Notes under the pieces: generated by a model | Databases searched by the model: none | Told to the model about the DNA's origin: nothing | The model's input: the letters and a program-made list of their open reading frames with translations, nothing else | Program-made: the position numbers and the translations under genes | Part shown: in pieces, positions 282 through 57,564 of the stretch | How positions within the stretch are numbered: position 1 is the first letter of the stretch | Layout of the letters: each line of letters opens with the position of its first letter | Assembly: GCA_045837725.1 (NCBI GenBank) | Contig: JBEWZL010000013.1 | Coordinates: 558,001 to 622,000 of the forward strand | Direction of reading: 5' to 3' | Source of the DNA: Vermamoeba vermiformis | Lineage: Eukaryota | Length of the DNA: 64,000 bases

Positions 282-3001
282 CTAGTTCTTGCGCAGGTAC
301 TTGGCGATCTCCTCCATCGTCTGAATGAGTGAGATTTTAATGTATGGGGCTTGCAATTATTAATTTGTGCAACATACCGGTCTATCAGCGGGGTCTCTCT
401 TCCAGCACATTTCCATCACTTCTCGAAGAACTGGATCGCAGTTGTCAGGGATCGCAGGATGGAATGCTTCATCTCGAATCTTCACTCCAACGAACAGTTG
501 GTCTTCATCAGCATGTGGTTCTTTGCCCGCAACAATCTCCCAAACTGATACAAGAGTGTCAGAGCTGTTGACTTTGATCGTGTGACACGTGTTGTTCTTA
601 CCTAAAATGCCATAAGACCACACATCTGATTTGACACTGTATGACTTGTCTTTCAAGCTCTCGGGGGACTACGGTTAAATGGTAAGTATGAGTACGAATA
701 GTTATTCTAGCACGCCGTACCATCCATCGCAAGGGACCAACATTCGTCTTCGTCTTTCCTCTTGCTTCTTCGTCTTGAATGATGCGAGACATGCCAAAGT
801 CGGACACTTTTGGCTGACCTTCTGTGCTAAGCTATATATTAAGGTTAGTAAGATCGATCAGGTTTTATGCTAACGTACCAAAATGTTTCGTGCAGCCAAA
901 TCACGATGCACGATGTTATTATTGTGGAGGTGGATCAGTCCATATGCAATCTTCAATGCAAACTCTTTCCTTTTAGCGTCTGTGACGGCGCTCGCATTGT
1001 CAAAGACAAGTTTATCAAGACTTCCACCACCGCAAAACTCGAGCACAATGCACGGATATGCACCGTCGAGACTGACACCGAATGTTTGGACCAAGTTCGG
1101 ATGAGGAGCAATGCCAAGTGTCAGTTTTGCTTCAGCAAGGAATCCTTCCATGTCAGTCACTGTGTTGTTCACTTTGATTGCGACTTCTGCTCCTCGCCAT
1201 TCACTGAAAATCGAGGGTTAAAAATGACGATAAATCAGGGCGGTTAGATCGTGCTTACCCCAAGAATACTTTGCCGTAGCTTCCAGCACCAATCTCTTTT
1301 GTGAAAACAAGACTCTTGTAAGGGATGTGCATTCGCTTATCAATCTCCGACGGGTTGATTCCAGTTGGATTGATCTCCGATGCTCCAATGTCAGAGGTCT
1401 CAGTGCCACCTTCAGGAATGCTGTTGTATTGGCCACTCGCTCGACTCATTGCCGGGACGGTCGCGTACGCTGACGGTGCAATGCCTGTAGCGCTAGAAGT
1501 CGTTGTCATCGCAACGGCATCATCGCCGTCCTCAACATCGTCACTTGACTTGTGTTCTTTCTTCTTGGCTTGTGCTTTCTTGCCAAAGTAGATGCCAAAA
1601 AAGAGCGCTGCTGCAACTCCGACAACAGGGATGACAATCGCTGGAACGAGCACTTCAGGACCTGGTGATTTGGGAGCGTTGACAATGGCGTCAGTTGGTG
1701 GGTCTACTGGAGGTGCAACGGGCGCGTCTACTGGTGGATTGATCGGTGTGTCTACGGGAGGGTCAATGGGGGCGTTGATTGGAGAATTGACCGGTGGAGC
1801 TATGGGCGCAGTAGGAGGGATAGCAGCTATTTACGAATATCATTAATACTTATTTACCCACCTACTTGTTAATGCATTCGTTTTACTTACTGCACGTGAC
1901 TCCATCGCCCTCAAAACCAGCGAGGCAGGTGCAATTAACTTGACCGCCGCCAAGGTACGTGCAACTCGCGTCTGCGGAGCAGCCTCCGTTGTTCGTTACA
2001 CAAGCTACGCGAAGAGTGAGTATGACCAAGGACTAGTTTCGCTTGTTATCTGCGCTACGTACGCTCTGTAATATTAGCGAACCATCCCTTAAGAGTTCTA
2101 ACCGAGTAAATCGCGCCTGTTGAAGCAGTCCAACCAAAGTAGTACTCGTTTGGCGTGACTGGCACGATCACTGAAGGACCTGACGTGAAGATGTTTTGCG
2201 CGCCGTCAATCTTTATCTGCAGAAAGCGTAAGTTCAAATTATTGCAAAATAATAGCTAGGTCTTATTATGGCTACTTACTGTCCAAGTAGTATCCGCGCC
2301 ATTAGGTGCGTAATCGATCCTCATCGTATGACTTCCGACGCCCGGATTCGTGAGAGATTTGTATGTACATTCTGCAGTAGCTAGATAAATAAACGGCAGT
2401 TCGGCGGTATTGTTACTAAACCATATATTAACAAATAAAGACCATTTCGACCGTACTTACACTTGGCAAAAATAAACACGGCTAAATACCATATCGATAC
2501 CGATTGCCACCATATTAGATAAGTAAACAATGTTCCAAGAGCCGCCATTTGTTTGCTGAGCGTTTAAAAATGAATTTTTATCGCCGGTGACCACGAAGCC
2601 GAACCTGCAACAAATGATTATTAACCGTTACAAAAAAATTAATTCTAATTTTTTGATAAGAAAATAATGTAATGAATAACGATAGGAAGAATATTATTAT
2701 TTTTAAATTAACGTTGCACTTACGCTTCTCCATAACCATTAAGCCCGGTGCCTGAAACGTCGTAATTGATCGTTATTGAGAAACCTAGTGAAACGTCTTG
2801 AGGAATAGTATATAGAACTCGCGACATTTGACCACTTTGGTCGGCGGTGAGCTGAATTTGGCCGGATCCTTGAACCGCATCTCCAATAATATTGTAATTT
2901 GCCGAGGTAAGAACAGTTTCATCAATATCCAGGCATTTGATAGAGGATATAAATATTAATCCTATCACCAAAATGGTGAAGAGGTGTGGCAGTCTTTTCA
3001 T
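282..3001 (-). CDS. Receptor tyrosine kinase: signal peptide, L-type (legume-like) lectin, EGF, Pro-rich stalk, TM, kinase (multi-exon)
   Basis: Signal peptide MKRLPHLFTILVIG; lectin-like IQLT...GFSITINY...YYFGWTASTG; EGF CTNNGGCSADASC...CTCLAGFEGDG; TM VLVPAIVIPVVGVAAALFFGIYF; kinase IGAGSYG, VAIK, HRDLAARN, DFG, GPLRWM, SDVWSYG. Last exon TMEEIAKYLRKN*. Confidence 0.9.
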
Positions 3002-3408
3002 CTGCGCTTTGAATAAATAAGCGTAAATTTAAAATTGCCGTATTTGTACTGAACGGCCAAAAGCGGAAGGGAAAAAAAAATGTGGTCTTAGTATACTCTT
3101 CTACTAAGACTAAAGGAAGACTATATGATACTTGATTAGATAATAGTAAAAGTTAGAGCACTGCACGAATAAGCGAAACAATTTTTCTAGATCGGTAAAC
3201 AAATTTTCTGTTTCTAGCATGACCACAAATTGTGATTAAAAGAGATAATTTCAAGTTTAAAAAATCGAATTATTTTAAAGAAAAAGGCTGAAAAAGTTCG
3301 CGATCGGCAAAGCGGTTGATAAGAAATACAATTTTAACTAAACGGAAACCCGCTATAAATTTACAATTTAAATAATGCTATCTTACGGTGGCGCGCTCAG
3401 AGTATTTT

Positions 3409-6086
3409 CTAGTTCTTGCGCAAATGCTTGGCGATCTCCTCCATCGTCTGAATTGTAAGGTATTAAAACCAGTTGTTTGTAAGCAGGTTGTCAATAGCTA
3501 TTATTAACTATGTTTAGCATACCGGTCGCTCAGCAGGATCTTTCTTCCAGCACATTTCCATCACTTCTCGAAGAACTGGATCGCAGTTGTCAGGGATCGC
3601 AGGATGGAATGCTTCATCTCGAATCTTCACTCCAACGAACAGTTGGTCTTCATCAGCATGTGGTTCTTTGCCAGTGACAATTTCCCAAACTAACAAAATA
3701 AGGTCAGATCTGTTGAAATGGTACGTGTGACACGTGTTGCTTACTTAAAATACCATACGTCCATACATCTGATTTGACACTGTACGACTTGTCTTTCAAG
3801 CTCTCGGGGGCCTAAATAACAATTAATGTTTTGAACAGAGTTGACTAATTCTGGTTGTTCGTACCATCCATCGAACGGGACCAACATTCGTCTTCGTCTT
3901 TCCTCTTGCTTCTTCGTCTTGAATGACACGTGACATGCCAAAGTCTGATATCTTTGGTTGACCTTCTGTGCTCAGCTTTAAGGTGTCGTTAGCAAAGAAT
4001 CACTTTAGCAGTGAAAGCTCAAAACTACTTACCAAGATATTTCTCGCGGCCAAATCACGATGCACGATGTTATTGTTGTGGAGGTGAATCAGTCCATATG
4101 CAATCTTCAATGCGAACTCTTTTCGTTTTGCATCGGTGACAGTGCTTTCGGTGTTGGTAACCAATTTATCGAGACTTCCACCACCGCAAAACTCAAGCAC
4201 AATGCACGGATATGCACCGTCGAGACTGATTCCAAACGTCTGCACCAAGTTTGGATGAGGAGCAATGCCAAGTGTCAGTTTTGCTTCAGCAAGGAATCCT
4301 TCCATGTCAGTCACTGTGTTGTTCACTTTGATCGCGACTTCTGCTCCTCGCCATTCACTGAAAACCGAGCGTTAAGATCAATTGCAATCGAAGATAAGAA
4401 GCACGTTCATACCCCAAGAATACTTTGCCGTAGCTTCCAGCACCGATTTCCTTTGTGAAGACAAGACTCTTGTAAGGGATGTGCATTCGCTTGTCAATCT
4501 CCGACGGATTGATTCCAGTTGGATTGATCTCGGACACCGTTACAGCGATGTCAGACTTGTCACTTCGCACTGTCTCTATATTAGGAATGCTGTTGTATTG
4601 GCCATTAACTCCGCTCATCGAAGGCACAGTGCCGTAGTTGGATGGCGCGATGCCTGTTGCATTAGCAGTCGACGTCAATGCCATGGCTCCATCGCCATCC
4701 TCGAGGTCATCACTGTTCGCTTTGGTCTTCTTCTTGGCCTGTTTCTTCTTGCCGAAATAAACTCCGAGGAAAATGGCAACTGCAGCGCCTACTACTGGCA
4801 CTACAATGGCTGGCACGATAACTTCGATCTTAGGCCCTGGAGGGGTAGTGACTTGGCCCTGTGGTGTGTCTACTGGAACGCTAACAGGTGCGGCGACAGG
4901 TGGATCAATTGGCGTGTCAACGGGAGGAATAGGTACTGTGGTACATGATATTAATATGATTATACTAACATGAATAGGCTGCACTTACTGCATACGATTC
5001 CATCTCCTTCAAAGCCAGACAAACACGTGCATTTGACTTGACCGTTGCCAAGGTACGCGCATGATGCATCCGCGGAACATCCACCGTTGTTCGTACACGC
5101 TGCCAATGCGAGTGTTAGTAGATTTTGATTGGTTAATTCTTGCAAAGATTACGCACGTTCAGTGATATTAGCAAACCAACCAGTCAGTGTTTTGTTGGCG
5201 TAAGCGGTGCCACCATTCGCACCAACCCATGCGAAGTAGTATTCATTCTGAGTCGTAGGAACGAGAGGAAAAGTACCACCAGGATTAAACAATACTTGAG
5301 CACCGTTTACACTGACCTAAGGGACGTTGTTATTAAATTTGAAATTTGACTATTTTAATAATCTTACCGTCCAGACAGTATCGTTGCCCTTAGGCGAGTA
5401 GGAAACGACCATAGTATGACTTCCTGCGCCCGGAGTTGGATATGGACTGTTTGTACATTCAGGTGATGTCGCAGGGTCTGAAGGTAAATTCGTCGAAGGG
5501 TCGCTGTTAAAATAATTAATTAAATAAACATACGTTTTTTAAATTAAGTTCAAACTTACGCTTGGCAAAACACAATAGAACCGGTAACCATGTCCACAAC
5601 TATTGTCACCACATTACTTAGCGTAGCAATATTCAAGCCTTGTCCGGCTGATTGCATAGAATTTATAATTGAGTTTGTTTCGCCTCCAACTATGAAACCA
5701 AACCTAGGAAATTTAAATTTCGATTTATTACCGTCAATAAATCGAGATAAATTTTAATAATTATGCTTTGATAATAGATCTAATGAAATTACTAAAATCA
5801 ATTTTATATATTTTTACCCTTCGCCAAGTTCTGTCCCGGAAGAAGCAACGTCAAAATAGATCGTTACGGTGAAACCAGATGCAACATCAAATGGCACATC
5901 ATACAATGCTCGCCCTGCTGTGCTGGCAGTATCTGGAGTGAGCTGAATTGTATTTAAATCGGCGACCGCGTTATTAATGAGCGTGTAAGAGTTGAGCGTC
6001 AGAGTGGTTTGATCAATATCCACGCATTTAATTGTGGATAATCCCAGCACCAATATGGTGAGGAGGAACTGTTGCAATCCTCTCAT
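3409..6086 (-). CDS. Tandem paralogue lectin-EGF receptor tyrosine kinase (multi-exon)
   Basis: Same exon structure and motifs as 282-3001; kinase exons nearly identical in DNA, lectin exons clearly diverged; ends TMEEIAKHLRKN*. Confidence 0.9.
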
Positions 6087-6383
6087 CTGCACGAAATAAT
6101 GATTTTTTTCTTTCATTGACACGTGTCAATTTAAATTCCCAAAATAGTTTTTTGAAATTTTACGGAGTTAAAACGTGGGTCGAGGCCTAATATGCCGTAC
6201 AATAACTTACTACGATTGTATGTGGTTAGAAACAGGCTTTGATTTTTTGACTCACAAGCGGGAAAAATTGCCGACACCTTCTGAGAGAGACGTGTCTTCT
6301 GTTTTCATTCAAAATACACGTTTATTATGCAGCGAGTTATTGTTGCGCAAGTTATGACACAAAATTGTTTTGATCTGCTCGAT

Positions 6384-9300
6384 CTATTTTTCGATGTATT
6401 GCTTGTTGACCAAGCTGGCGTAGTGACCATTCTTAGCAATCAATTCTTGATGGTTTCCAACTTCAACAACTTGACCATGCTTCAACACAACGATTGAGTG
6501 GGCGTCTTGCACAGTTCTCAGTCGGTGCGCGATCACGAGGACAGATCGACCAACAGTAGCCTTGCTCAAGGTGTCAGCGATGGCAGCTTCAGACTCAGCG
6601 TCGAGGGAGGCAGTGGCTTCGTCAAGAACGAGGACACGTGGGTTTTTAATCAAAGCACGGGCCAAGCAAACTCGTTGTTTCTCACCACCTGCACGTGACA
6701 AAAATTGTTAGAGATCTGCTTGCGCTTTACTTTTTAAAGTTCGTATTGTTCATGTATGACTAAATATATTAAGAGTATAACTTACCTGAGAGCTTCAAAC
6801 CACGTTCACCAACGACAGTATCGTAACCTTCAGGCATGCGCATAATGTCATCGTGGATGTGAGCCATCTTGGCGGCCTCAACAACTTCTTGTGGTGTGGC
6901 GTTAGGACGACCGTAAGCAATGTTATAATAGATAGTGTCGTTAAATAAGACCAAGTCTTGAGGAACCACCGAGATGTTCTTTCGGAGCGAATCCAACTTG
7001 ACATCTCGCAGATCGTGACCGTCGAAAATGACTGAGCCATTCTCGGGATCATAGAATCTGTACAACAATCGAAGCAGTGTTGTTTTACTAATAAAATAGC
7101 AGTTAGTAAACGAAATTTCGGAATTAAATACGCGCATCCGTTTTTTCAACACTTACCCTCCACCGCTAATACCAACAATAGCGACCTTCTTGCCAGCAGG
7201 GATCTTGAATGACACGTCGTTCAAAATCTTCTTGTCTTCGTGGTACGAGAACGACACGTTTTTGAATTCAATGTCACCAACAGCGTTGTTAATTTCAACG
7301 GCGGTAGGCGAGTCTTGAATGGCCGGTTGGAGCTTCAACAACGAGAACATGGCGTCCATGTCAACGACAGCTTGGCGCAGTTCACGATAGACTGAGCCCA
7401 AGAAGTTGAGTGGCAAACTCAATTGGAACACGAGACCGTTGACCATGACCAGATCTCCGACTGTCAAGTTGCCGCCTTGAATGCCGTAAGCAGTCAACAT
7501 CATAATGGCTGAAAGTGCGCCAGAGAAAATCAAGTTTTGACCAAAGTTCAAGAACGACAATGAAGTTTGAGTCTTCACTGCTGCCTCGTTGTATTTGGCC
7601 AACACTTTGTCGTAGCGTTCAGTCTCCAGCTTTTCATTATTGAAATACTAAAAAATAAATCATTAGCACCGTTAGCCAAATATGGTAATTTCAATTAATA
7701 GGAGCTTACCTTGACAGTTTCGTAGTTCAAAAGAGAATCAATGATAACAGTAGCAGCTTCGTTATCAAGTTGGTTCATCTCTTTGCGGAACTTTGTTCGC
7801 CAGTTTGTGATAGCGAATGTGAATATGGTGTATAAAGTCAATGCTCCGAGCGTTACTCCGACAAAGCTCGATCCGAATTTCATGCCCAAAATAGTGCAAA
7901 CGAGACCGATTTCAAGGACGGTCGGGACAACGTTGAATAGCAGTGATGACAGCACGAATGAAATACCACTGTAAATACACTCGTTAAAATCGTCGACGTG
8001 TTTGCAAAGGGACAGATCCGGATCCGTTTTAAAGAAGACTTACCGAGTACCACGGTCAATAGCACGTGACAAACCACCAGTTTGACGAGATAAATGGAAT
8101 TTCATGTCCATTTGATGCAAATGATAAAATGTCTTTGCAGCCACTCGTCGAATAGCAGCTTGTGACACGCGCGAGAAAACAGCGTTACGAAGTTCTTGGA
8201 ACAACGAAGCACCTGCTCGAGCCAAACCATCTATAAAATACAATGCGTTATTATCATATCACCTCAACGTATCAAACTTCCAGCTCAAAAGATCCACGAT
8301 CCAAAAAATTGTAATGTGAGTTCAATTGCGTTAAATAAATATGGTGGTAGTAATACTATTAAACACATCAAATATGAGTGAATGATAACACTTACAGCCT
8401 ATTAATACAGCAAAAGGAATTGCTAGCAGAGCATCGCCTTGAACATTCAATGAATCGATAATATTTTTGAATAGAATAGGGACTTGAACGTTGAGTAACT
8501 ATACTATAATATTAGTACCGTATTATAATTGTTACGAATATTTAGTAAGGTGTACCTTTGAAACGACGAGCAAGCCAACGGCAACTAATACTCGCTTCCT
8601 TAGTTCAGGCGCATCTTTGGGCCACAAATGCTTTAAAAATACTTTTGTAACGTCCCATGTGCTTCTATAATACGAAATATAACATATAAGTAAGTTATCT
8701 AAATGAAACTTTGATAAAAATAGATCCGGAAAATCAGCCAGTACACGAGGCTAGTTACTCGATTAAAATCCCACAACCTCGCAAATATGACTCTATATAT
8801 GTCTTAAAAAAGATGTACGTACCCTCCTTGGCCTTCAGGCACGGTTGAATTTTGTTTTTCTTCTTCGTCATCTTTTTTTTCTTCTTTAGCTCCTTTACTG
8901 TCTTTACTGGCCATGCGTGCTGCTGCTTGATACACGCTAAACGGCGAGGCTTTGCCTACTGGTCTATTTTTAATCTCTTCTTCTTCTTTCTTCATTGACT
9001 CCTCAACGGATTTGTCGGATTTGGTTACGATAACTGGACCTTGACCGCTGCCTATAATGTCCATTTTTCGTTGTTTATCATTCTTGGGCTTTGTACATTC
9101 ACGCTATAATTTCAAAAATAAGAATTAGTAATCGGAGCAAAATGCAGATCCGCGTTACAAGTTAATTTACCAAACGAAACAATTACTATTTGCTCATATA
9201 ATCGGTAATTCAATAGTTATATTCACAAGGAATATCGATTCATGAGAAAGCAACTATTGTAAGCAAATAAAATTGCGCCGTGTCACATCCCAACACAGAA

Positions 9301-9685
9301 TATTTGTTGAGCGCAGAAAAAATATGTCGTATGTTTAATTATGATATATTATTGGCTTTGAATGTGATTTTAATTGATTTTAAGGTTAATCAATAAATAG
9401 ATAATTTACCGAAGGGCCACAGCAAGAGCTCGTGGAACTAGCGCGGACAAACGTGGTTTGTCTCCATTTATTCCGAATATTAGTGAAAAAATCTGTCTTA
9501 TTATTGGCCTTGTTTGGGGTGAAGCTGCTGTACGAACTGCCTAGAAGGGTGGATGTAGGCACTTCAAACTTGGAAAGGCTATAACTTGTGTTTCGCTTGC
9601 CATATAGAGTTGGCAATGATCCTACTAATTTTCTTTGGTGTAGGGCAACATTAGCCACCTTATGCAAGGAAGTAAAAAGGCTCAT
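6384..9685 (-). CDS. ABCB7: Mitochondrial ABC half-transporter ABCB7/ATM1
   Basis: [71 protein letters not shown]-rich N-terminus typical of a mitochondrial presequence. Confidence 0.93.
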
Positions 9686-10404
9686 CTGGGCAGATCGAGA
9701 AAATAAATACAAAAAAATAATGATTACCGGATCAATTAAATAAAAGACCCGATAACAATTTGGTATCGATCTGGTTCCTTGTGGCTCGTGTATAATGATA
9801 CTAAGATTGACACAACCGACGACGGTATTTTTCGAGGCGCGTGGAAACTGTTTTGACCAAAATTGGATTCACTCGTGCCTATTTTCATTTCTTCCAGAAC
9901 TACGACGACCAATATTCGAATGACCGAAAGTAAGAAAATACATGACCCACCATGTCAAGGTCAACGATTGCGATGAAAGCTTGGCGCCATTGCGGGCGGA
10001 TGTTGATCGACCGCTAGCATCACGCTCCATTTGAAAGGTACCACAAATGATTCTCATAATTAATAATTCCAAAAGTAAATTGGTCTCCTGCAATAATATA
10101 CTACTTTGCTACAGTGATGATTTTCAGTTCAGATTTAATCCACGCGTTTCAGAACTAACAATTAAATTAATGAATTTTTCAATTATCTAATTATCTATTG
10201 TTTTTACGCAAAGGAAGTCTTGAATTTTTTATCAGATAAATTCTTTTGATTTTTAAAAAACAACGGCCACAAGGACCTTCGAGCGTCAGAAAAGCATCAT
10301 CGCGCGAGTTATTACCCTTACCGTGCTTTAGCAATCAACGTGCTGCTAAGGCGATCGTTGTTTGCGGTGAGGTGTCAAGGCAGACATTGATCAGACTTGT
10401 CGAG

Positions 10405-10540
10405 CACCTGAGAGAGTGCGCATGTTGGCACCAAGTGCACGCCCGTCTCGCGCAAACGAGACTTGTCAGTGGCAAAACTCGAGATGGAGATTGCTGCAGC
10501 AAACAGCACAACAGAACGAACCAACTCCGTTACAAGCAGT
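10405..10540 (+). pseudogene. Relic fragment of the C-terminal region of the lectin-EGF surface protein family
   Basis: About 135 bp closely matching 12708-12846 and 15525-15633 (acgagacttgtcagtggca...gagatggagattgc...aacgaaccaactccgt) with small deletions that break the frame. Confidence 0.8.
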
Positions 10541-10945
10541 GGTCTGCGCATTGATATTTCTGGTACGCGAAAGTTTTTTCGTGTCCTGGTTTGAGAAATC
10601 GGCAGCATCTATTCTGATTACATAATCTTATTTTTTAATTGTATCCACATTAATTAATTACTGGCAATATGATACTATTAATTAATGACTTCAGATTTCA
10701 CCCGTTTGATATCAACGTACTTTCTTTTCTCCTTTTGTGCGAGCATTCAAAAGGAAGTCACGTAACCCTTTATAAGTTGAGTAGAGGTCAATTATGGCAT
10801 TAGTTATTAATAGCTGCACGAAGATTTTTCTCCTTTTTTAGTCAAACGTATCGTGTGATCCGTAATTAATGGCGGGCAGCAATTCCCTTTTGTTCATTTT
10901 GTTTTAACTTTTACTCGGACACCACACGAGAATAGACCAGATATC

Positions 10946-13123
10946 ATGTACGGTCGATTTTGTCTTTTAGTATCGCTTGTGGTGTTGTTCCTGGTTGCTG
11001 TCAGAGCTGACCTGGATCAATCGTCCATAACTAATGGCTTGTATACGACCACTGGCACCGCGACTGACTCGGGTGGTTTTATTCAACTGACCCCTTCTTC
11101 AACGAATCAAGCTGGTGTTGCACTTTACTCAGCACAACAAACGATCGCAAACGGATTTTCTACAACTTTCAGTTACACGTCGTCTGGCTGTTCTACGCCA
11201 TCTGGTGCTGATGGGTATGTTACATGTAATTATCCTATTTTGACTCCAATTAATTAAATCAATTCTAGATTCACGTTTTTGGTTTCACCCCTTCTCTCGA
11301 TCACGGGCTCACTTGCAACAGGCAATAGTCTCGCAATCGCTGGTGCTGCTAACGTGGCGGTAGTTGCATTTGATCTGTACAACTCAGAACTTCGCGTTTG
11401 CTCAGCGTAAGCCAAAGAGCAAAACAAAATCAAAGCTGCAATGACTAAGATTTCCGCTTTTAGTAATTCAATCACCCCGCTTTCCTGGGCCTCCAGTTGC
11501 GCAGTTGGAAACATTACGGCTAGTCTTAAATGCAGTGGCGCTCATACGTTGAAAATTGGGTTTTCTGCTCCGAGCAGCTGGCAAGTCTGGATCGACGGCA
11601 TTTCACAAGGCAATTTTACCAAGGACTTGACGAATACATTGACGATGGTTAATGGCATGGCTTATGTCGGTTTCACTGGCTCGACAGGAACGTACTACAT
11701 GCGCCAGCGAGTCACTTCGTGGACCTTGACATCCGCTACAAGTACGCTCAATTAATTCAATGCCTTATAGATACTCATACTATTATAGATTGTTCTGTAA
11801 ACAACGGAGGATGCTCGCTTGATGCTACCTGTGCCGTTGTTAGTGGTTCGACTCAATGTACTTGCAACGACGGATTTACGGGCGATGGCTACACGTGCAG
11901 TAAGTATACAACAGTGTTATATGAACGGCTTTTCTAATGAGCTGCTATAGCTGTCACTTCTCCACCTGTCAATCCACCTGTTGACGTGCCGCTTGCAGCG
12001 CCTGTCGAGCCACCTGTTAGCCCACCTGTCGATGTGCCAGTAGCACAACCTCTCGCTGAACGGCAGCACCTGTTTATGTGGCGCCACCCGTTGACGTGCC
12101 TATCGCTCAACCAGTTTCGGCACCAATGGCAACGCCCGTCACTCCGCCCACTGCTGTACCAATCACACCACCTGTCAGCACTCCTATCAATACACCAGTT
12201 ACGCCGCCAGTCACGCTGCCTGTACCAGTGAGCCCTCCAGTCAGCACACCAACAGCGATGCCAGTGATCATTCCAATCCTCGAGTGTTTCGATGACTTGC
12301 AGAACGGCAGTTTCATCGCGTATTTTGGATACAACAACACCATGGGCGAACAAGTCTCTGTGCCAGTTGGCTCAATGAACACATTTGGCAGTCCTTCGTT
12401 CATTGGTCAACCCACTTCTTTCGAGGCTGGTAGATCTGGTAAGTGAAACTAAGTGCTCGTTTTGTATTTGCATTAGACTAACAATTTTTGTAAGATTTCT
12501 ATCCGCAAGCAGCATTCGCGTACTTGTGGGATGGCAAGACACTGACATGGACTTTGACTTCGTACAGACTGACACTTGACACCTCTGACACGAGCAGAAA
12601 GTGTCCTTCATTTGCACGCTTCACTCTAACGTTCTACACTGAACGACAGTTGACTGATCAAGAAATCAACGCGATCTCACTGGGACTATCTAACACTCTT
12701 GGAATTTCACCTGAGAGAGTGCGCGTGTTGAGCATCAAGTACACGCCTGTCACGCGCAAACGAGACTTGTCAGTGGCAGAGCTCGAGATGGAGATTGCAG
12801 CAGCAAACAGCACACAACAGAACGAACCAACTCCGTCACAAGCAGTTCAGACTATAGTTGAAGCAGCAAAGAACACCACCGCGTTGAACCAAGTGCTTGA
12901 TCCAAACGGCACTTTGAATCTGCAAGTCCTTGGAGTTAAATCTGCACCAACAGGTGTTGAACAATCAGGCAGTGCCAGCAACGCCACTCCTAGCAACGAG
13001 CCTACCACAAAGACTCCTCGTGGATTGTTGACGGGTCAACTCGAATCTGGAGCCGACTCCCAAACTGAATACATAATGTTGCTGATTTCGTTTGCAGTTA
13101 TAACCTTTTTGGTAAGCGTGTAA
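10946..13123 (+). CDS. Kinase-less L-type lectin-EGF-Pro-rich surface protein with C-terminal hydrophobic anchor (apparent frameshift near 12061)
   Basis: Signal peptide; lectin motifs GFSTTF, GADGFTFLV, VAVVAFD, AYVGFTGSTG, VTSW; EGF CSVNNGGCSLDATC...CTCNDGFTGDG; PPV repeats; PILECF...YFGY domain; terminal hydrophobic stretch. Confidence 0.8.
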
Positions 13124-13378
13124 TATAGTGATAATATCGATGTAAATAATGATTGAAAACGCACTTCGTTGCTACATCCGAAAGCCGTTGCACGAATTTT
13201 TAGTTGGTGCAAAACAATTCAAATTAGATTACTCGTTCAAGTAACTCGTGAAGACATTCATTAAGACAATTTAATTCTCTATCGATTAATTAACTCGGCC
13301 ATTTGATTTATTTGCCAAATTTGTAGTTTTCGTCGCGTAATTTATAATTTTGTTTTTTTGCACCACATCAACACCACC

Positions 13379-15902
13379 ATGCAAGGCTCATTAAATCTTT
13401 TAATACTGTTAATTGCCTTGTTGGCTTCGGTTGTGACTGCCGACATCTCACAAACGACGATCACATCCGGTTACAATACATACGGCAATGGTTTAGTAGG
13501 ATCCGGTTATATTCAAATCACTCCTTCGCAATCACAAACTGCCGGTATTGTATTATATTCGACTCAGCAAACGGTTGGCTACGGATTTACCACGGAATTC
13601 ACTTACACAAGCACTGGTTGCTCTGGAGGTGGTGGGGACGGGTATGTTTACTTTCATAGTATTATATTACAAGTCATAGTAAAATAATACTGATTTGTTT
13701 TTTTTTATCAGTTTCAATTTCATCGTTTCTCCATCTACCTCTTTTTCGACCCTACAAAAAGGTGGAAGTATGGCCGTAGAAGGTCAAACAAACATTGCCG
13801 TTGTAGCTTATGATGGATATAAGAGCCAGCTGAGAATTTGCTCAGTGTAAGCGTTTCAAACGACATCTGTCATGATAATCTCCCGTTGGCGTGATTGAAA
13901 TTAATAATCATTTCCGCTTATGACTAATTTATCATGACTACAGGCCATCGGGTACATCATTATCATATAGTAGCAATTGTGTTTCGTCAAGTTTGGCCGC
14001 GATCAGATGCACCGGATCTTCGCATACCTTTAAAATTATCTACACGCCCAACTCCGCTTGGCAGGTAATATAATTAATACTCGATAACAATATGACTAAT
14101 AAATACTAGTTATGGGTTGACGGCACTTCTCAATCCCTTACTGGCCCGCAAGGTTTAACTGGCACGTTGACTTTGAACGCCAACTCTCAAGCTTATGTTG
14201 GCTTTGCTGGAGCTACTGGCGATGCATATATGGATCAACGAATCATTAGCTGGACGTTCACTTCAACGCCAAGTAAGTTTTTTTGTGGTTTCATGCCGGA
14301 TCCCTTCAGTTCATTTTCTGGTATTGCGACGTAAATTAGCAATTTTTATTAAGAATTGTAATCTCGCGTGGGAATAGTACTAATTTTTCCTAACTTTACC
14401 TTATTTGATTCAGCCTGTGCACTGAACAACGGCGGATGTGACACGAATGCAAACTGCTCAATCGTGGCCGGTTCAATCTCTTGCACGTGCAATAACGGCT
14501 ATACTGGCGATGGCTATACATGCTGTAAGTGCTCGAATATCTGGGATGACATGCAAGAATGACACCTGTCACTTGTAATTACCCGAGAGTCAATCCTGTC
14601 TACATGCTAACGCTCGTTCAGCCATTCCTCCCGTAGATCCGCCCGTCACTCCAATTACCACAGTTACCTTTTTTGCACCGCCAGTCGACCCTCCCGTATA
14701 CGTTGCACCACCTGTGGATCCGCCATCTACTTGCCCCTTTGTCTATGTGGCACCACCTGTGGATCCGCCCGTCTATGTTGCACCTCCTGTCGACGTGCCA
14801 GTCTCTATCCCGCCAGTAGATCCACCAGTCGTACCACCTGTTGCCGTGCCTGTCTCAGTACCAGTCTCAGTCCCTGTCGCCGTGCCAATCTCGGTGCCTG
14901 TTTCAGTGCCACCAATTAGTACTCCGATCGCTGTCAATCCCCCAATCGCAGTGCCGCCAGTCATGTCACCGGTCACTACTCCACCCGTACCTGTTCTAAC
15001 TCCCGTCAATGCACCTATGTCATTCGAAGTGCCAGTAGCGATGCCAGTGGTCATTCCAATCCTCGAGTGTTTCGATGACTTGCAGAACGGCAGTTTCATC
15101 GCGTACTTTGGATACAACAACACCATGGGCGAACAAGTCTCTGTGCCAGTTGGTTCAATGAACACATTTGGCAGTCCTTCGTTCCTGGGCCAGCCAACCA
15201 CATTCCAAGCTGGTCGTTCGAGTAAGTCCGGATCTGATTTTGTATTTGACAAGTTGTTCTAATTAGTATACATTAGATTTCTATCCTGATGTGGCATTTG
15301 CGTACCTTTGGAACGGCAGAACGTTGATTTGGACTTTGACTTCGTACAGATTGACACTTGACACCTCTGACACGAGCAGAAAGTGTCCTTCGTTTGCTCG
15401 CTTCTCATTGACATTTTACACGGAACGAGAGCTGACTGATCAAGAAGTCAACACTCTCGTGGAGAATCTTGCAAATAATCTTGGAATTTCAGTGGACAGA
15501 ATCATTGTGAAGAGCATCAAGTACACGCCTGTCACGCCTTCGAAAAAACGAGACTTGTCAGTGGCAGAGCTCGAGATGGAGATTGCTGCAGCAAACAGCA
15601 CACAACAGAACGAACCAACTCCGTCACAAGCAGTGCAAACATTAGTCGAAACATCGAAGAACACCACTGAACTGAATCAAGTGCTTGATCCAAACGGTAC
15701 TTCGGATCTGCAGTTCTTGGGCTTGAAAACTGAGCCAACAGGTGTTGAGCAGTCAGGCAATGCTGTGCCTCAAGCAGCTAAAGGAGATTCGCCCAGGTCA
15801 TTGTTGGGCAGTACTGCCAGCGTTCGCGTCGCTGCCTTGGATGTGACGCTGTTGTGGTGTTGCCTCGTAATTTTGTCTTTGCTTCATATTACCGTTAGGT
15901 AA
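13379..15902 (+). CDS. Tandem paralogue lectin-EGF-Pro-rich anchored surface protein
   Basis: Same architecture: [43 protein letters not shown] repeats, PILECF domain almost identical in DNA to the first copy, hydrophobic C-terminus. Confidence 0.85.
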
Positions 15903-16429: not shown

Positions 16430-19262
16430 CTATTTTCTTCTGTTTCTTTTCTTTCGCATTTCTTTTTCGCTGAGATTGCCTTGCTTTTCTCTGTAATTTA
16501 AATAAGAAAATTAGCACCGTAGTTCATTTTTCAAACTTTCAAACCCAGATCGAGATCCGATCGAGTCAGGTACTACTTACATCCGTTGCTGTTTGGTTTT
16601 ATCATGCTTCTTCAGCTTCTTCTGACGTTCATCGCTTCTGCCACTCCTAATCTCGTCTATATCGAGCATATGATCCTCCATGGCAAGCACTGCTGGCGCC
16701 GGATCGATAGCCAGATGATCCAACGAGCTCGCAAGATTTTTCTCGCGGCAGAGCTTACAAAGACACTCGTTAATTTCTCTGGCGTCCTGGCCATTAAAGT
16801 AGATATATTCAGGACCCTTGAGCTTGTGTCTGAGACTAATTACGTGGTGATAATAAATTCCGTTGGATCCTCTAATATCAATCACGTCCACCTTGTTGAA
16901 TCTTCTAATAATGTCCATAAAGTGAGGGTTATCAAATCCATACGTAAAAGTAACCATCTTTAGCGTTGGAAGTTCGCAGATCTCGTCCAAAAATAAAAAT
17001 TCGAACGCACCAACGGATCCGTTCAAGCTGAAGTATTCCAAATTAGGCATATTGGCTAATCCTACTGTCTTGTCATCAACTGCTGGGAATACACTTTGAA
17101 CGCTGAATTCCAAATGCCTCAAATTCTTCAACTTGACGATCTCCAAAAAGATGCTGTTGGCTGCTGTTTGAGTTTCTATTTTTAGCTTTACCAAATTAGT
17201 AAAGTCGCTCAATTTGGAAAATCTTCCCATAGTTCCGATATTCAAATTGAGTTCAGTGAGTGTGGCCATATTGAGTTGATCCAAAGTGTCGGGCAGATGT
17301 GGCACATCCGTTATTGTCAGGGACTGGAGATTAGGCCATACTTTGAAATTGAAATTATTATCAATTAGGCTTAGCGTTACTGCCTTCATCTGCGTCAGAT
17401 CTGATAGCCACGTGTACGATCCAGAGTTCGGGATGGACCTGTGTGCTGTTTCATAGTCTCTAAACCGTAAAGTTGCAAATGACGTCAATTTTGGCAAATT
17501 TTTCGCGTCAAAAAGCGTCAAATCATCGCTGATAACACCGCCCAAGTGTTCCAAACGCGTCAAGCTGGATAAATGCTGGGGTGATATTTCACTAGGCAAT
17601 CTATAATATAGATAATATTAATGTTAGTCTTAATAATCGATGGTTAAATTAGGTTTGAAAGAGGTCCTATTATAACGAAAGAAAAAACGGATTTGGATCC
17701 AAATTTTTTTTTTGCCTGCGACTGATTTACAAATGACGTATTCATTAAAGATCAAATAATATATTATCAATGCATATGATGGACTTACTCTAGGCGCTTC
17801 AGATTGGTCAGATGCGTTACATCGAGAAAACTAAACGGCAAGACAGAAATATTCTCTTGAAATGAGAGTGATTCCAATCCTGCAAATGAGTCTTGGTGCA
17901 GCCAAGTTTTAGGCAGGGAGGACCTCATGAAAACCTCCCATTCGACTTTAATAGTCTTCAACGATGCTACAAAAAAATAAATTAATTAAAATCTGTCTTA
18001 ACCGCCATAATTTAGCGGATAATGCATTATTACAAATAAGTTAATATTTTTCTAAGAAATTATTAGATGAATTATTCTTTAAATCTTACGAGGATATTCA
18101 TGGCCAATGAGTCTATTCAAAACACAAATGTCCGCAACGAGTGTTTGAAGCTTCGGGAAGCATTTCAAGTTATTAGGCGTGGTATTATAGACGAATAAGG
18201 TGTTCAAATTGCTGAATTTGTCGAATAACGGAGACCATTTGTTGCGAACTTCTAAGTAGCTACATCCAAAAAAAATTTAGTTTTTGACGTATAAAATAAG
18301 CACTCTAAGTATTAATATATTACCTAGTATGTTTTATGATCGCTCTTTTCCATTTCTTATTAACTTTCATTGGCGTAGTGTTGAAATGCCTCGATCCAGT
18401 GAACGAGCACATTAACGCAATAATTTCCTGTTCAAAAATTAAGATCAGCACTTAAAAAAGCATTAAATATATAATAGCAACGCTATACTGTAATTATAAG
18501 GAATGATAAGCTTGTGCGAGAAAATTTTTCTACCTCGGGCATGGAGGCCAAAGGACCCTCAACACAATCGATACCAAAGTGCCCAAGTTTGTCGCAATGA
18601 TAGCACTTCTTGACGGCGGGGAGCGCTTTGTTTGGCGCGAATTGGACGGTCATTCGTTTGCCTTGGTATCGCGTGCCATTGATGGACATTAGCGTCTTCG
18701 TAGCGACGTGTTTTTGCTCGTAAAAGACATAAACATAGCCTACATGATAATCGATTGGAAATTATGTAATAAATGACTATATTATAACGTGGTGACGTAC
18801 CTGATTTTTCGCAGTCGATGTGCGTGACGGCTCCAAAATTGGATGCTATCGGCAAAAATTGAGTCTTTTCAACGAATAAGGGAAGACCACCTACAATACA
18901 ATAATTAGATAAACTTAACCACATCGGCAATTACTTACTAAATTCTAAGCAATAGTAGCTCTGTTCCTCGTCATCACTCGAATCGTCATCAGATTCGTTA
19001 TTATTTCGAGTTTTCTGAATATTTTGGATTAAATACTGTATATTTAGATAGTAAATATTTATGGGTACCTTATTTTGAGTATCTTCGAGAATATCAAAAA
19101 TATTGTGGCTCTGAAAACCGCCGCCTCCTAGTGAAATATTACAATAAGACCAATAATAATAAATTTTAATTAATAAAAAGCCATAATAATGGTTGTGCTT
19201 ATTTATACAAGTGCTGCATAATAAATTTCAGACTAATCGCGAGATTACCTACCTTTTCTCAT
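16430..19262 (-). CDS. RRM, CCHC zinc knuckle, F-box, LRR protein with basic tail (multi-exon)
   Basis: Spliced translation: CLEFSGLP (RNP2-like), SGYVYVFY (RNP1-like), MSINGTRYQGKRMTVQFA; CYHCDKLGHFGIDC; LASMPEEIIALMCSF...VNKKWKRAI; LxxLxxLxL repeats; last exon EKEMRKKRNRRK*. Confidence 0.75.
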
Positions 19263-19483: not shown

Positions 19484-22058
19484 ATGATATCTATAAGATC
19501 ATTAGCGGTTGTCCTTTTTTTGACCGCTTTTTTGGTGGATGCCAATCAGACCCCTGCTTTAGAAGCTGGATTATGGTAGGAATCGATTCAATTAAATAAT
19601 TAATATATTTTAAGTAATTTATTTCGCATTTTAATCGAGCTAAATCTTAATTAACGGAATAAGAAGCATTTACTTTTGATTTTCTTGTTTATTGAAAAGA
19701 TATTATTTTATAGGCCGCTCCCCAAGTCCTTCTCTTTTGGCTCTGATACTGTATACTTGAACCCTGATAAATTTGAAATTCGCATGTCATTCCACAGCGA
19801 TTTAGTAACGGATGTGATCGGTCGATTTCATAACAGATTATTTTCTGGTGCAGCTGTAAGTATATATGATTATAGTTTATACATTTATTAATATGATATT
19901 TAGGTACCTTCTATTCAAATTCAATACCCTCCACCTCCCGTTTGGAACAATCAGAACGGAACCGGATCTGTAAACGCAGAAACTTCACCTTTCTTAGGAG
20001 GAATTCAAATGAAATGGGATTCGGATAGCGAAGATCTTAAATTAGGCGTCGATGAGAGCTATACATTGACAGTACCAAACGGTAAATACTAGCTCCAATT
20101 TTTTTTTTGTGGATTGAGATCTCGTTTGGTAGATCTGAGACACTAACGCTAATTTAATTACAGAAAATGGAGCATTCATCCAGCTCAATGCTAATAATAT
20201 TTTTGGTATTATGCGTGGTTTGGAAACAGTTTTGCAATTAGCTTTTGTCGAAGGTTTTGAAGAAGGCCACACAAATTTGGACGGCATTGCTCCATCTGCA
20301 AATTTCCTATCGATAAAAAATACACCAATCAGCATCGAGGACGCACCGAGATTTCCTTGGCGAGGAATGTTGATCGATACCGCTCGTCATTATTTCTCGA
20401 TTGAAAAATTGAAGCAGATCATAGATGCGTTGTCGTGGAACAAAATGAACGTTTTTCATTGGCACATTGTTGACGCGGAGGTACGTCCCGATAAGTTCTT
20501 ATTACCATATAAGGCAATGTCAGCTAAATTTAGCATCGTAGACTTTTCCTCTCGAATTAAAGTCCCGGCCTGAACTCGTTGAAAACAGTCGCTGGACCAT
20601 GGCCTCGACGTACTCGCAGCGTCAAATCAAAGAACTGACGCAGTACGCGTTGTACCGTGGTGTGCGCATCGTGGCTGAAATTGACACGCCGGGTCATACT
20701 TATTCTTGGGGCCGAGCCTTCCCGAACATTATTGCTAATTGCAGCAAATATATTTCATCGCGATCGATTACTTACCCGCAAATTAACTCCGTAAGTAACC
20801 AATGGAATTTTAAATTTTTTTTATGTTGCTGATCCGTTGGATCGAGCAGATCCCGCTCGACTTGACAAAGGACGAGACTTACGCAGTCCTTAAAGACGTA
20901 TTGCAAGAGACAGCTGCTCTGTTCAAGGACGATTTTATTCATTTAGGGTAAGCGTATAATACTATAGTTATGAGTTTTATTAACGTAAACTGCGCAGTGG
21001 TGACGAGCTGATCACAAAATGTTACGATGAGTTCCCCGAAATTAGACAGTGGATGCGTGATCATCACATGAATGACACTACTTACGTCGAATTGATTCGT
21101 TATTACCAAGAAAAAGTCATCCAGTACGTGCAAGAAAAGAACAAAAAGTTCGTTGTGTGGCAAGAAGCTTGGGAACATTTTGAAGGACTGCCGACGAATC
21201 CGTTCCCCGCAAACGGCGGTACGTAGTCAGACTGCCGGCTATAATAACAATATCGTATTAATATTATATGTAGGTACTATGGTGCAAGTATGGAAGGGCG
21301 AGAACGGACCGGTCGTGCAAAATCAATTGGAACAAATTTTGACCTCTGGTTACGCAGCTTTATTATCTTCGGGTTATTATTTGGACGTTCAGATCCCTAA
21401 TGTTAACCAAACGTGGTATCTTGCTCTTGGTACGGTCTGATCAAATTTTTAATCGAGGTTCTAATCTTATCCTGCAGATGTGTGGAAGAATTTCTATCTT
21501 AACGAGCCTCTGAGCGACGATTTGATGAATAAGTTGTCACCTGATCAACTATCGCAATTTAAGGGTGCTGAAGTATGGTGAGTATTATCCGGCTCTCATG
21601 ACGAAAATTATTGAAATTAATCGCATCCGCAGCCAATGGGGCGAACAAGTTGAAGAATGGAGTATTGATAAGATGTGGGCACCTGCGTTAGCAGCTTTTG
21701 AGCGATACTGGTAAGCCATATTATACTTTACTAGTGGGTAATATGGCTCACGTGGCATTTTTTTAGGTCTCCAAGATCCGTCAACGATCCGAACCAGGCG
21801 TACCCAAGATTGATCCGACAACGGTGCAGAATGTTACAACGAGGTTTAAATATTCAACCGCTTCGTCCAGATCACTGCTCAGTCTTTAGAAACCCGAAAA
21901 CGGAAGATACAATTAAGGGCTCATTCCCGACTTGGCTGATCGTGCTTGAAGTCATAATTTTTGCTGTAGTTTTGGCTGGTATGATTGCTGTGATCGTTAT
22001 TTATTATAAGAAGATTAGAGAAGTCAACGACACTCATTTTTCAGCTGTAATTGATTAA
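19484..22058 (+). CDS. Beta-N-acetylhexosaminidase (GH20) with C-terminal transmembrane helix
   Basis: Signal peptide then LWPLPK; GVDESYTL; IEDAPRFPWRGMLIDTARHY; NVFHWHIVD; EIDTPGH; spliced HLGGDE catalytic motif; TM WLIVLEVIIFAVVLAGMIAVIVIYY. Confidence 0.92.
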
Positions 22059-26987: not shown

Positions 26988-28121
26988 TTAAGCACTGTGC
27001 TTGATGTTCTTAGCAGCCCAAGTCTTCAAATCGGTCAAATTAGGATAAATTTTCTTGCATTCAGCGATGTTAGCGCTGTATCCAACCTTTTGGAAGAACT
27101 GGAACATCACTTTCATCTCGTGATCGAGCTTCTCGCAAGGAATTTCATGGAATTTAGTGGCGCCGAGAGCCTTAGTAAACTCTTCCATGGTAAGCTCGTC
27201 GCCTGCTACTTCCATGGCCTTATTTGGCAAGAGATCAGGTTGCTCGAGAGCGATCGCAGTGAAAGCACCAATGTCGTCAGTAGCAATGGCTTGAAGTTTG
27301 TCGGTAGGTCTCATGGGGAGAGAGAATACTCCGTCCTTAATAGTGTTGGGACCAAGGAAGTTTTCCATGAAGTAAACAGGACGGATGATCGAGTAGTGCA
27401 ATCCGGATGCGGCCAAGTACTTCTCTGTTTCGTATTTGCTCTCGAAGTGAGGAATCTTAGTATGCTTATCAGCTGCTCCGACGGAAGAGTAGACCAAGTG
27501 CTTCACTCCTGCGCGTTTGGCAGCGTCGATCGCGTTCTTGCCTTGACGAATCTCGCCGTCAGGGCCGATACCCCAGAAATTGACGACTAAATATACGCCA
27601 TATGCACCCTTGAATGCAGCTTCGAGGGAGGCAGGGTCTTCTAAGTCACCCTTGACGAGTTTTACACCTGATCGTGTCACGCGACGTAAGTATCAATTTT
27701 AAGGCATAAATGCAATTGCAAATAAAAGATCTTCAAGAATATGCTCTGTTTTGCTATAATAATTACCTTTGCTTTCCCATGCTTTCGCTTTCTCGAGATT
27801 GCGTACCAAGCCATGGACTAAAAAATTTTCAAAAATGTCAGAAAAAGCATCATCATCATTCGGAGCAAAAGTAATGGTAAACCAAACATGCGTTTGCAAT
27901 CGGCGTAAAGATCGCGATTTAGACTTCAAAAGAGTCAAATTTGAGTCAGAATCTGATGCGACTTACCTTCGTATTTGCCTCCTGCCAACAAGTGACGTGC
28001 GGTCGCTCCACCTTGTTTACCGGTGATACCAGTGACTACGACAATCTATTCGTAACAAAGAATCAGACAAGGGCATACGAGTTATTTGTAGGCAGATCAA
28101 TCTACTTACAGGTTTGCTCAT
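26988..28121 (-). CDS. NmrA/HSCARG-like NAD(P)-binding protein (4 exons)
   Basis: Spliced N-terminus MSKPIVVVTGITGKQGGATARHLL...VHGLVRN; VKGDLED, HLVYSSV, PHFESK, IIRPVYFMENF. Confidence 0.9.
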
Positions 28122-57178: not shown

Positions 57179-57564
57179 CTCTATTCTGAATATGACCTAC
57201 AAGGCATTAATAATTAGAAATATCCAATATTATTCAATTATGTCGCATTCAAAAAATCGATTAAAAATTCGAGAATAGTATGTCACGTTGCAAACTATTA
57301 AAGTTAATCAATAGATGATTAAAATTATTAGTAATTAATAAAAAGCTACCCGTTAAGTAGCGGAAAGCGTGAAGGGAAATAAACTATTATTGGCATACCC
57401 TTCCTGGTTCCTATTAAATACAGTTAAATTATCCTTAGTTAACAAGTGTTGATACTATTATTGAGGGAAAAAAAAGTCGTTGTTGGCCCTCGTCCAAAAT
57501 AACGCGCCCTGGTTCAATGGTAATGACTTAAGTCGCCGGATTTTAGCAACTGAAGGGTTTATAA

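Follow-up and report, generated by a model that had tools for sequence, protein, structure and literature searches.

A tandem family of lectin–EGF cell-surface proteins in Vermamoeba vermiformis that probably joins tyrosine-kinase-type receptors with anchored, kinase-less paralogues

Known receptor systems and the Vermamoeba locus

Receptor tyrosine kinases have long been seen as a hallmark of animals, and lectin receptor kinases as a speciality of plants. The locus described here is a group of four genes, g1 to g4, in a 64,000-nucleotide stretch of Vermamoeba vermiformis DNA (contig JBEWZL010000013.1, positions 558,001 to 622,000 of the forward strand; this whole stretch is the window, and all coordinates count from its first letter), and two of the four, g1 and g2, appear to unite both designs outside both groups. 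Our analysis makes it reasonably probable that g1 to g4 form a tandem, lineage-specific cell-surface family in which a duplicated cassette of L-type lectin domain, EGF domain and proline- and valine-rich (Pro/Val) stalk has been joined to two membrane-attachment modules, with g1 and g2 encoding receptors of tyrosine-kinase (TK) type and g3 and g4 encoding anchored proteins.

Judged by protein-language-model features, the closest clusters are those of plant L-type lectin receptor kinases, all from Streptophyta (score 0.90), and these share with g1 and g2 a signal peptide, an ectodomain of legume-lectin fold, a single transmembrane helix and a cytosolic kinase. They differ in that g1 and g2 carry the kinase motifs HRDLAARN and P-x-R-W and have an EGF domain and a Pro/Val stalk inserted between lectin and membrane. 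The nearest solved structures of a kinase of the g1/g2 type are animal tyrosine kinases (the best 60 of 2130 matches) and not the receptor-like kinase (RLK)/Pelle or IRAK kinases as in plants, whose RLK/Pelle catalytic loop follows the consensus HRD[IL]K..N rather than the HRDLAARN found here. Since the kinases are of a different type, what g1 and g2 have in common with the plant receptors would be convergent architecture and not membership of that family. Descent from a plant lectin receptor kinase was rejected on that difference, as seen in motifs and nearest solved structures, and an earlier note on this DNA, made from the letters alone, had likewise proposed that the architecture was assembled independently of the plant receptors.

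Single-pass receptors with a kinase of TK consensus are also described outside animals, in Amoebozoa, and g1 and g2 are alike in this respect. The text of the Protostelium aurantium survey counts about 167 tyrosine kinases and describes the majority as probable receptors, with ectodomains of polysaccharide-binding or protein-interaction type (PMC5804921); that of the Physarum survey gives three single-transmembrane consensus tyrosine kinases (PMC4758236), and that of the Acanthamoeba survey seven protein tyrosine kinases with transmembrane domains (PMC4053784). Amoebozoan receptor tyrosine kinases with polysaccharide-binding ectodomains are thus already known from the text of these sources, which tempers the novelty of the present locus. 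Neither an ectodomain of L-type lectin plus EGF nor kinase-less anchored paralogues are named in the text of the three surveys, whose figures and supplements may tabulate architecture, and a literature search that paired tyrosine kinase with legume lectin or Lectin_legB, with survey figures and supplements outside its scope, found only plant or unrelated papers. Another membrane protein from Amoebozoa that carries a legume-lectin domain at its N-terminus, L8HDD6 of Acanthamoeba castellanii, is described in the text of its source as recovered by affinity to beta-1,3-glucan (PMC10880599); compared by architecture and not by sequence, it differs in lacking a kinase and in having filamin repeats where g1 to g4 have EGF and stalk.

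The shared cassette and the module that ends g3 and g4

Five intron-rich eukaryotic genes occupy the first 16 kb of the window, the four lectin–EGF genes and an ABC half-transporter gene. Gene models came from a dynamic programme using codon usage and splice sites and were then corrected by eye; the modelled introns are 45-170 nt long, with donors of GTAAGT type. On the minus strand, g1 (282-3001; 11 exons, 700 amino acids) is predicted to encode a signal peptide, an L-type lectin domain, an EGF_3 domain, a Pro-rich stalk, a transmembrane helix, a 95-residue juxtamembrane region and a TK-type kinase, and g2 (3409-6086; 11 exons, 683 amino acids) has the same architecture. On the plus strand, g3 (10946-13123; six exons, 598 amino acids as modelled) has a predicted signal peptide, lectin, EGF_3 and stalk followed by a two-part C-terminal module and a hydrophobic tail, and g4 (13379-15902; seven exons, 672 amino acids) repeats this domain order with a Pro/Val stalk of 164 residues; neither has a kinase. 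The models draw support from a relative, P0009, which looks mRNA-derived (a contig of about 2.2 kb for 694 amino acids) and aligns colinearly with g1 and g2 along its entire length. Contigs of sequencing run X5 (95-99% alike) skip introns 4, 5, 6 and 8 of g2, introns 3 and 5 of g3 and intron 6 of g4, at joints that coincide with the modelled boundaries exactly or to within three letters. By this intron skipping X5 is an RNA-type run, none of the listed sequencing runs with matches being recorded as RNA, and close relatives of g2, g3 and g4 are therefore transcribed; coverage of g1 in X5 is too thin for a call on transcription. Three runs of raw RNA reads (X21-X23) yielded 34-39 reads each, most of them partly aligned over conserved kinase motifs and then passing into unlike sequence, and are uninformative on expression, the neighbouring ABC gene also being barely covered.

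The cassette has the same order in all four products, namely a signal-like hydrophobic segment at the N-terminus (four of four by hydropathy), a domain of about 210 residues, one EGF domain and a Pro/Val-rich stretch. The EGF domain has six cysteines and the NNGGC motif in each gene and is encoded by an exon with phase 1 introns on both flanks (in g1, 1891-2004, minus strand), and this symmetric 1-1 exon is compatible with exon shuffling. EGF_3 (PF12947) matched the EGF exons of g1, g3 and g4, with the g2 exon left out of the profile scan, at E 4e-13 to 7e-14 (3.8e-13, 1.2e-13 and 6.5e-14, respectively) and 49.9-52.3 bits against a cut-off of 28.5. Stalks range from 44 residues in g2 to 164 in g4, at 26-35% Pro and 11-24% Val. 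Five intron positions are common, with phases 2, 2, 0, 1 and 1: the first lies after G-E/D, the second after C-Q/S, and the third, of phase 0, before a strand of the form I/L-x-V/I-D/N-G. The earlier note had reported four genes with a common signal peptide, lectin, EGF domain, stalk and intron positions at these coordinates; all of this stands except that the third intron has no counterpart in g3. The common positions and phases argue that the cassette was duplicated as one unit.

Divergence along the genes is uneven. The lectin domains are 46% identical between g1 and g2, 51% between g3 and g4 and 27-33% between the pairs, with synonymous sites saturated, and by these distances both pairs are old. 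The g1 and g2 kinases share 93% identity, with a synonymous divergence (dS) of 0.40 and a nonsynonymous-to-synonymous ratio (dN/dS) of 0.09, as against a dS of 1.6 and a dN/dS of 0.31 for the lectin; between g3 and g4 the lectin dS is saturated, the C-terminal module has a dS of 0.41-0.67, and the last exon a dN/dS of 0.11-0.38. This pattern suggests a later exchange or gene conversion of the 3' halves, or swapping of ectodomains, in a signal that is not separable from constraint. Pairwise intron identities of g1 and g2, at 64-84%, lie at the noise level of the global aligner and were not used on the question of gene conversion.

In place of transmembrane helix and kinase, g3 and g4 carry a two-part module of about 250 residues (g3, 12321-13123; g4, 15104-15902; both plus strand), which in g4 consists of a beta-rich part, an alpha/beta part resembling SEA domains and containing a Lys-Arg loop, a Ser/Pro linker and a tail resembling a glycosylphosphatidylinositol (GPI) signal. 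The module matched no Pfam family in the g3 and g4 exons or in six relatives, and it is rare, with 25 relatives among 1.84 billion representatives; a word-based homologue search with the last exon of g4 against longer proteins returned nothing, which is weak evidence of rarity. Its first half starts at a conserved I-P-I-L-E-C, is beta-rich and was modelled poorly, with residues 70-107 below 50 in the predicted local distance difference test (pLDDT). The second half folds as beta-alpha-beta-beta-alpha-beta at pLDDT 85-96 (residues 140-265 of the P0033 model), and the nine best matches of this model in VIA, at Z 8.0-8.9, are Trop2, SorCS2, CELSR1, PCDH15 MAD12, IA-2 and the SEA region of Gpr126, all of them membrane-adjacent ectodomain modules; the SEA domain of mucin-16 followed at Z 6.8, and an atlas look-up gave a SEA cluster at 0.77, which we treat as a lead only.

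The likeness to the ferredoxin-like SEA and MAD domains of animals (mucins, IA-2, PCDH15, Gpr126, Trop2) thus lies in a beta-alpha-beta-beta-alpha-beta module set beside the membrane under a mucin-like stalk, at Z values in a grey zone. Two results count against it: Foldseek found no match to the module model at E<=0.001, and VIA values of Z 8-9 are common for models that have no clear match. Neither the g3 and g4 exons nor six relatives matched the Pfam SEA family (PF01390) at E<=0.1, and the module has Lys-Arg in place of the autoproteolytic G/S-V-V-V hairpin of animal SEA domains. This Lys-Arg, in the hairpin between beta2 and beta3 (window 12708-12760 and 15514-15570), is kept in 24 of the 25 rows that cover the loop in alignment A2, and the hairpin is presumably the place where true SEA domains cleave themselves. 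We therefore describe the second half, on the strength of its model, as SEA-like in shape and position and not as a SEA domain, and a dibasic processing site at the Lys-Arg hairpin is a reasonable guess.

Leaving the g4 stalk aside, the sole membrane-type segment of g3 and g4 besides the signal is a hydrophobic tail at the extreme C-terminus, which bears out the earlier note's statement that two of the genes end in other domains and a hydrophobic anchor. In g3 the sequence ESGADSQTE is followed by a hydrophobic tail of 17 residues, g4 ends similarly, and small residues precede the tail. A C-terminal hydrophobic tail is found in 23 of the 25 relatives, the other two being short pieces that lack it. 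The tail looks like a GPI signal, a call made by pattern alone and to that extent a point against counting g3 and g4 as anchored.

Both membrane-attachment modules recur in other company, in line with the modular assembly that the earlier note envisaged. In P0029 the lectin sits directly on the anchor module, with no EGF domain, and most relatives of the anchor module are short and have no lectin (P0032, P0033, P0039, P0046 and P0049, of which P0046 and P0049 have a dictyostelid-like composition rich in Asn and Ile, a hint of an amoebozoan context). In the kinase and juxtamembrane module the more distant members share 67-78% identity and a conserved E-I-D-K-R-M/L-H-I-P-Y, and in P0002 and P0005 this module is joined to unrelated ectodomains of about 400-490 residues that have no Pfam match. 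As a side observation, P0002 and P0005 represent further receptor types of the kinase family, outside the window. A word-based search with the lectin–EGF part of P0009 returned only its own cluster, again weak evidence of rarity. A metagenome scan with the kinase alignment returned five contigs of 1.2-2.5 kb, too short to show conservation of the cluster. The MAFFT alignments A1, A3 and A8, in which many exon fragments are mixed, were visibly misaligned and were not used.

What g3 and g4 have to do with g1 and g2 is the question on which the alternatives stand closest. By architecture, g3 and g4 would present the kinase-less ectodomain on a longer stalk, above a beta-rich module, an SEA-like membrane-adjacent domain and a signal resembling those for GPI attachment, and they are most likely surface adhesins of lectin type or binding proteins; that they modulate g1 and g2 as co-receptors or decoys is conjecture. 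Kinase receptors paired with GPI-anchored, kinase-less partners are known from plants (CERK1 with CEBiP/LYM) and animals (RET with GFR-alpha), and the likeness consists in a signalling receptor and anchored kinase-less proteins that bear the same or a matching ligand-binding ectodomain on one surface. The domains in the window are unrelated to LysM or GFR-alpha, and the likeness is known here from the genes. This analogy is the one argument that favours a link, and nothing contradicts the alternative, to which we give a chance not far short of even, that g3 and g4 have no part in g1/g2 signalling, being surface or wall glycoproteins in their own right, for example adhesins or coat proteins, with an old cassette in common and a nearby position owed only to tandem duplication. 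In keeping with independence, the lectins of the two pairs are as distant as described above with saturated synonymous sites, the anchor module occurs without any lectin in most of its relatives, and a housekeeping-type ABC transporter gene parts g1/g2 from g3/g4.

The lectin-type domain and the kinase

Membership of the N-terminal domain in the L-type lectin fold family (Pfam PF00139 / PF18483) is established at the level of profiles and models. The Pfam scan covered exons singly, and the assignment draws on relatives, a family profile and a model. The matches of the window's lectin exons, to Lectin_legB, Lectin_leg-like or Lectin_L-type_dom, fall where they should along the profile, the best of them that of g4 exon 4 with 23.9 bits to Lectin_legB; in g1, where exons 1-4 encode the mature part of the domain (2063-2935, minus strand), exon 4 has a sub-threshold Lectin_legB match. 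Two relatives of the g1/g2 type, P0001 and P0009, whose aligned lectin pieces are 37-47% identical to g1, pass the Lectin_legB cut-off of 26.3 bits with 28.5-28.6, their matches spanning positions 16-237 of the 250 in the profile, and P0029, which is of the g3/g4 type, reaches 45.1 bits, with 13 of its 13 matches in the PDB being legume-type lectins. A family profile, A6, which combines P0001 and P0029 with those pieces of the four window genes that align well, matches 74 PDB sequences at E<=0.01, the best 60 of the 74 being legume or ConA lectins throughout; pea lectin, its top match, scores 43.8 bits, against 30.1 bits with P0029 alone. The AlphaFold model of the P0001 ectodomain (mean pLDDT 59.5, predicted template-modelling score 0.58) gave 342 Foldseek matches at E<=0.001, with a best E of 2.4e-7 and template-modelling scores of 0.44-0.51 over about 220-230 columns, and the matches listed are legume lectins except at rank 23, the bacterial cell-surface protein YwfG.

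Several points pull the other way. Single lectin exons of the window score 11.9-23.9 bits and so stay below the Pfam cut-off of 26.3; the P0001 model is of low confidence and comes from a relative rather than a window protein, the other four models having pLDDT 35-44; and none of the 11 weak matches of a phmmer search with the P0001 ectodomain alone against the PDB is a lectin. The earlier note had called the ectodomain an L-type lectin with EGF and had proposed a domain search and ConA-like modelling as checks. Relatives, the A6 profile and the EGF_3 matches agree with its call, as does the model of the P0001 ectodomain; the domain search, run on exons, upheld EGF_3 and PK_Tyr_Ser-Thr and left Lectin_legB below its cut-off on single exons, with the relatives passing.

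The sugar site is a separate matter, as the metal and sugar site defines sugar binding and not the fold family. In an alignment to pea lectin, and across A6, all six sequences compared (g1 to g4, P0001 and P0029) retain the Asp of the F-D motif. The A-D-G-F motif has its Asp in g3, g4, P0001 and P0029, and the loop equivalent to the metal/sugar loop of legume lectins is short and not conserved. Sugar binding is made less secure by the replacement of the A-D-G-F Asp with Glu in g1 and g2, and by the Glu of E-F-D, the Asn of F-Y-N and the W-D-P...H stretch of pea lectin, for which the six sequences have no counterpart; these we take to be the Ca/Mn ligands and the sugar-binding Asn. The earlier note's proposal of glycan sensing is set back by the short, variable loop and the change to Glu, and sugar binding by these lectin domains is, from their sequences, possible.

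An alternative with a substantial minority share of the probability is accordingly that the domain has the lectin fold and binds no sugar, serving instead for a protein, a nucleotide or another small ligand, or having a mainly structural role. Binding of extracellular ATP or NAD+ is reported for several of the plant L-type lectin receptor kinases, and in this plant family the canonical sugar-site residues are often poorly kept. The unconserved Ca/Mn and sugar-Asn loop, the key Asp that has become Glu in g1 and g2, and the P0001 ectodomain, which phmmer pairs with no solved lectin, all fit such a domain. On the other side, the lectin fold and family signal has been kept in both subfamilies under purifying selection (the g1/g2 ratio given above), the D-G-F Asp and the Gly-rich loop that follows it persist in g3, g4, P0001 and P0029, and the Acanthamoeba membrane protein with a legume-lectin domain was, by the text of its source, recovered on beta-1,3-glucan (PMC10880599).

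The kinases of g1 and g2 look to be of tyrosine-kinase type, and the products have the layout of receptor tyrosine kinases, that is, signal peptide, ectodomain, single transmembrane helix and cytosolic kinase. Hydropathy places transmembrane-type segments at residues 3-28 and 330-358 of g1 and at 4-25 and 307-336 of g2, each internal one being followed by a Lys-rich stretch; the threshold was also passed by the g2 lectin, a beta-strand false positive, and by the Pro/Val stalk of g4. In g1, exon 6 (1259-1826, minus strand) encodes stalk, transmembrane helix (about residues 330-358), a juxtamembrane region with three Tyr and the start of the kinase with its Gly loop, and exons 7-11 (282-1203, minus strand) encode the rest, with a PK_Tyr_Ser-Thr match of E 2.2e-22 on exon 7. 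The juxtamembrane region measures 95-100 residues and has three Tyr in both proteins, and the kinase is complete, ending 12 residues past subdomain XI with no C-terminal tail. GAGSYG, VAIK, HRDLAARN (at residue 564 of g1 and 547 of g2) and DFG are all intact; the P+1 loop reads PLRWMSPE in g1 and PVRWMAPE in g2, and subdomain XI reads CWKRDPADRP and CWKKDPAERP, respectively. Tyrosine kinases are marked by HRDL[AR]A[AR]N, P-[IVL]-[KR]-W-x-x-PE and CW..P..RP. The earlier note had read HRDLAARN and GPLRWM in both genes and had taken them for tyrosine-kinase signatures; the first motif is present in both, the second is literal in g1 only (g2 has PVRWM), and its reading of the kinase type agrees with the nearest solved structures.

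Those structures were sought with the kinase of P0001, which, like that of P0009, is 90% identical to the g1 kinase and which scores 228.8 bits with PK_Tyr_Ser-Thr against 181.2 with Pkinase. Of 2130 PDB matches at E<=1e-10, the best 60 are all true tyrosine kinases at 138-196 bits, among them EGFR, the Src-Abl ancestor, ITK, CSK, Eph, Abl, Lyn, Hck, Lck and JAK, and none of these 60 is a plant RLK, IRAK or tyrosine-kinase-like (TKL) kinase.

That the kinases instead belong to the TKL or dual-specificity class and resemble tyrosine kinases in a few motifs, as do Dictyostelium TKLs that phosphorylate tyrosine, so that the receptors would fall outside the TK group, we consider improbable. Three points lend it some weight and tell against the assignment to tyrosine kinases: TK-like motifs can occur in dual-specificity kinases; placement in the TK group draws on motifs and nearest solved structures and not on a tree; and the activation segment of g1 and g2 has no Tyr, which implies a regulation unlike that of most receptor tyrosine kinases. 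With the N-lobe exon alone, moreover, TKL and STE20 kinases score close to tyrosine kinases (MLK4 41.2, SLK 39.2, LRRK2 37.6 and TAK1 37.5 bits, against 41-52 for the best tyrosine kinases), and the text of the Physarum survey states that only 4 of 29 tyrosine kinases called by InterPro keep all tyrosine-specific residues (PMC4758236). The whole kinase domain, with tyrosine kinases throughout its best 60 matches, and the joint presence of HRDLAARN, P-x-R-W-M-x-PE and CW..P..RP speak against this alternative.

If g1 and g2 are indeed receptors of TK type, the lectin-fold domain and the EGF domain would be held off the membrane by the Pro/Val-rich stalk, with the kinase inside the cell. A multivalent ligand bound by the lectin domain could then cluster the receptors, and the clustered kinases could phosphorylate one another's juxtamembrane tyrosines in trans; the phosphorylated tyrosines would in turn recruit phosphotyrosine readers. 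Since the activation segment has no Tyr, any phosphotyrosine docking sites must be juxtamembrane, and a motif of the form Y-N-S-I/L-P or Y-Q-N-I/L-P recurs in this region in g1, g2, P0009, P0003 and P0004.

A role of the cluster in prey recognition is conjecture. A bolder proposal, which we regard as quite unlikely, would make of it an amoeboid pattern-recognition system of its own, independent of plants and animals, in which lectin-fold receptor tyrosine kinases, signalling through phosphotyrosine, act with GPI-anchored lectin paralogues; these would be held on the SEA-like module, be cleaved at its Lys-Arg hairpin and recognise the same glycans, whether microbial or self, in the role of co-receptors or of decoys released from the surface. 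Were it true, the cluster would be a convergent counterpart of the plant pairs of lectin and LysM receptor kinases with receptor proteins, built on a true tyrosine kinase. Short of that, the 1-1 EGF exon, the one kinase module on several ectodomains and the one anchor module with or without lectin point to convergent receptor design by domain shuffling, and the matched signalling and non-signalling versions of one ectodomain would offer a tractable system for how a phagotrophic cell reads surfaces. The value of the locus is tempered by the degenerate-looking sugar site and by what the text of prior surveys already reports on amoebozoan receptor tyrosine kinases.

The g3 stalk, the relic and neighbouring genes

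The model of g3 has one anomaly, in the stalk, where two Pro/Val-coding frames overlap. If the acceptor closest to the EGF exon is used (exon start 11951), the Pro/Val frame loses register and meets a stop at 12231, and only a 167-nt intron at 11900-12066 keeps the C-terminal module in frame; this joint is not among the X5 splice joints listed. A defect, an assembly indel in the repeat and a secreted isoform are each possible, and the chance that g3 is defective is a point against counting it as a working member of the family. About 400 nt upstream of g3 lies a relic (10405-10540, plus strand), recovered by blastn and by tblastn in two frames, that is a piece of the last exon of a g3-type gene. 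It matches g3 12708-12846 at 91.4% over 139 nt (blastn, E 2e-51), contains a frame break and has no other gene remains around it, and by these features it is a recent partial duplication of the g3 last exon; the earlier note had recognised it as the remnant of a further copy.

That g3 is itself a decaying gene, or has a secreted isoform, is unlikely: the stop reached through the near acceptor, the overlapping frames and the relic close by would suit it, and it is opposed by RNA-type X5 contigs that cover g3 from 11341 to 12960 at a depth of 11-32 and skip introns 3 and 5, and by a last exon that is constrained relative to that of g4 (dN/dS as given above).

A tblastn search of the other 48 kb of the window found no further copy. 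Between g2 and g3, and parting the two gene pairs, stands the ABC half-transporter gene (6384-9868, minus strand; ABC_membrane and ABC_tran), eight introns of which are confirmed by spliced X5 contigs. Farther along, two long single-exon open reading frames on the minus strand, at 16577-17617 and 29705-31408, encode leucine-rich-repeat proteins (LRR_14 and LRR_6, the latter of ribonuclease-inhibitor type), and a GH20 hexosaminidase and an NmrA-like protein are found at 20139-20573 and 26988-27692, respectively. The remaining observations concern a glycine dehydrogenase (44444-46750), an open reading frame at 52449-53342 (minus strand) that is GKRP-like, its match to glucokinase regulatory protein covering the second SIS domain and the C-terminal lid, and an ankyrin-repeat protein (55979-57196).

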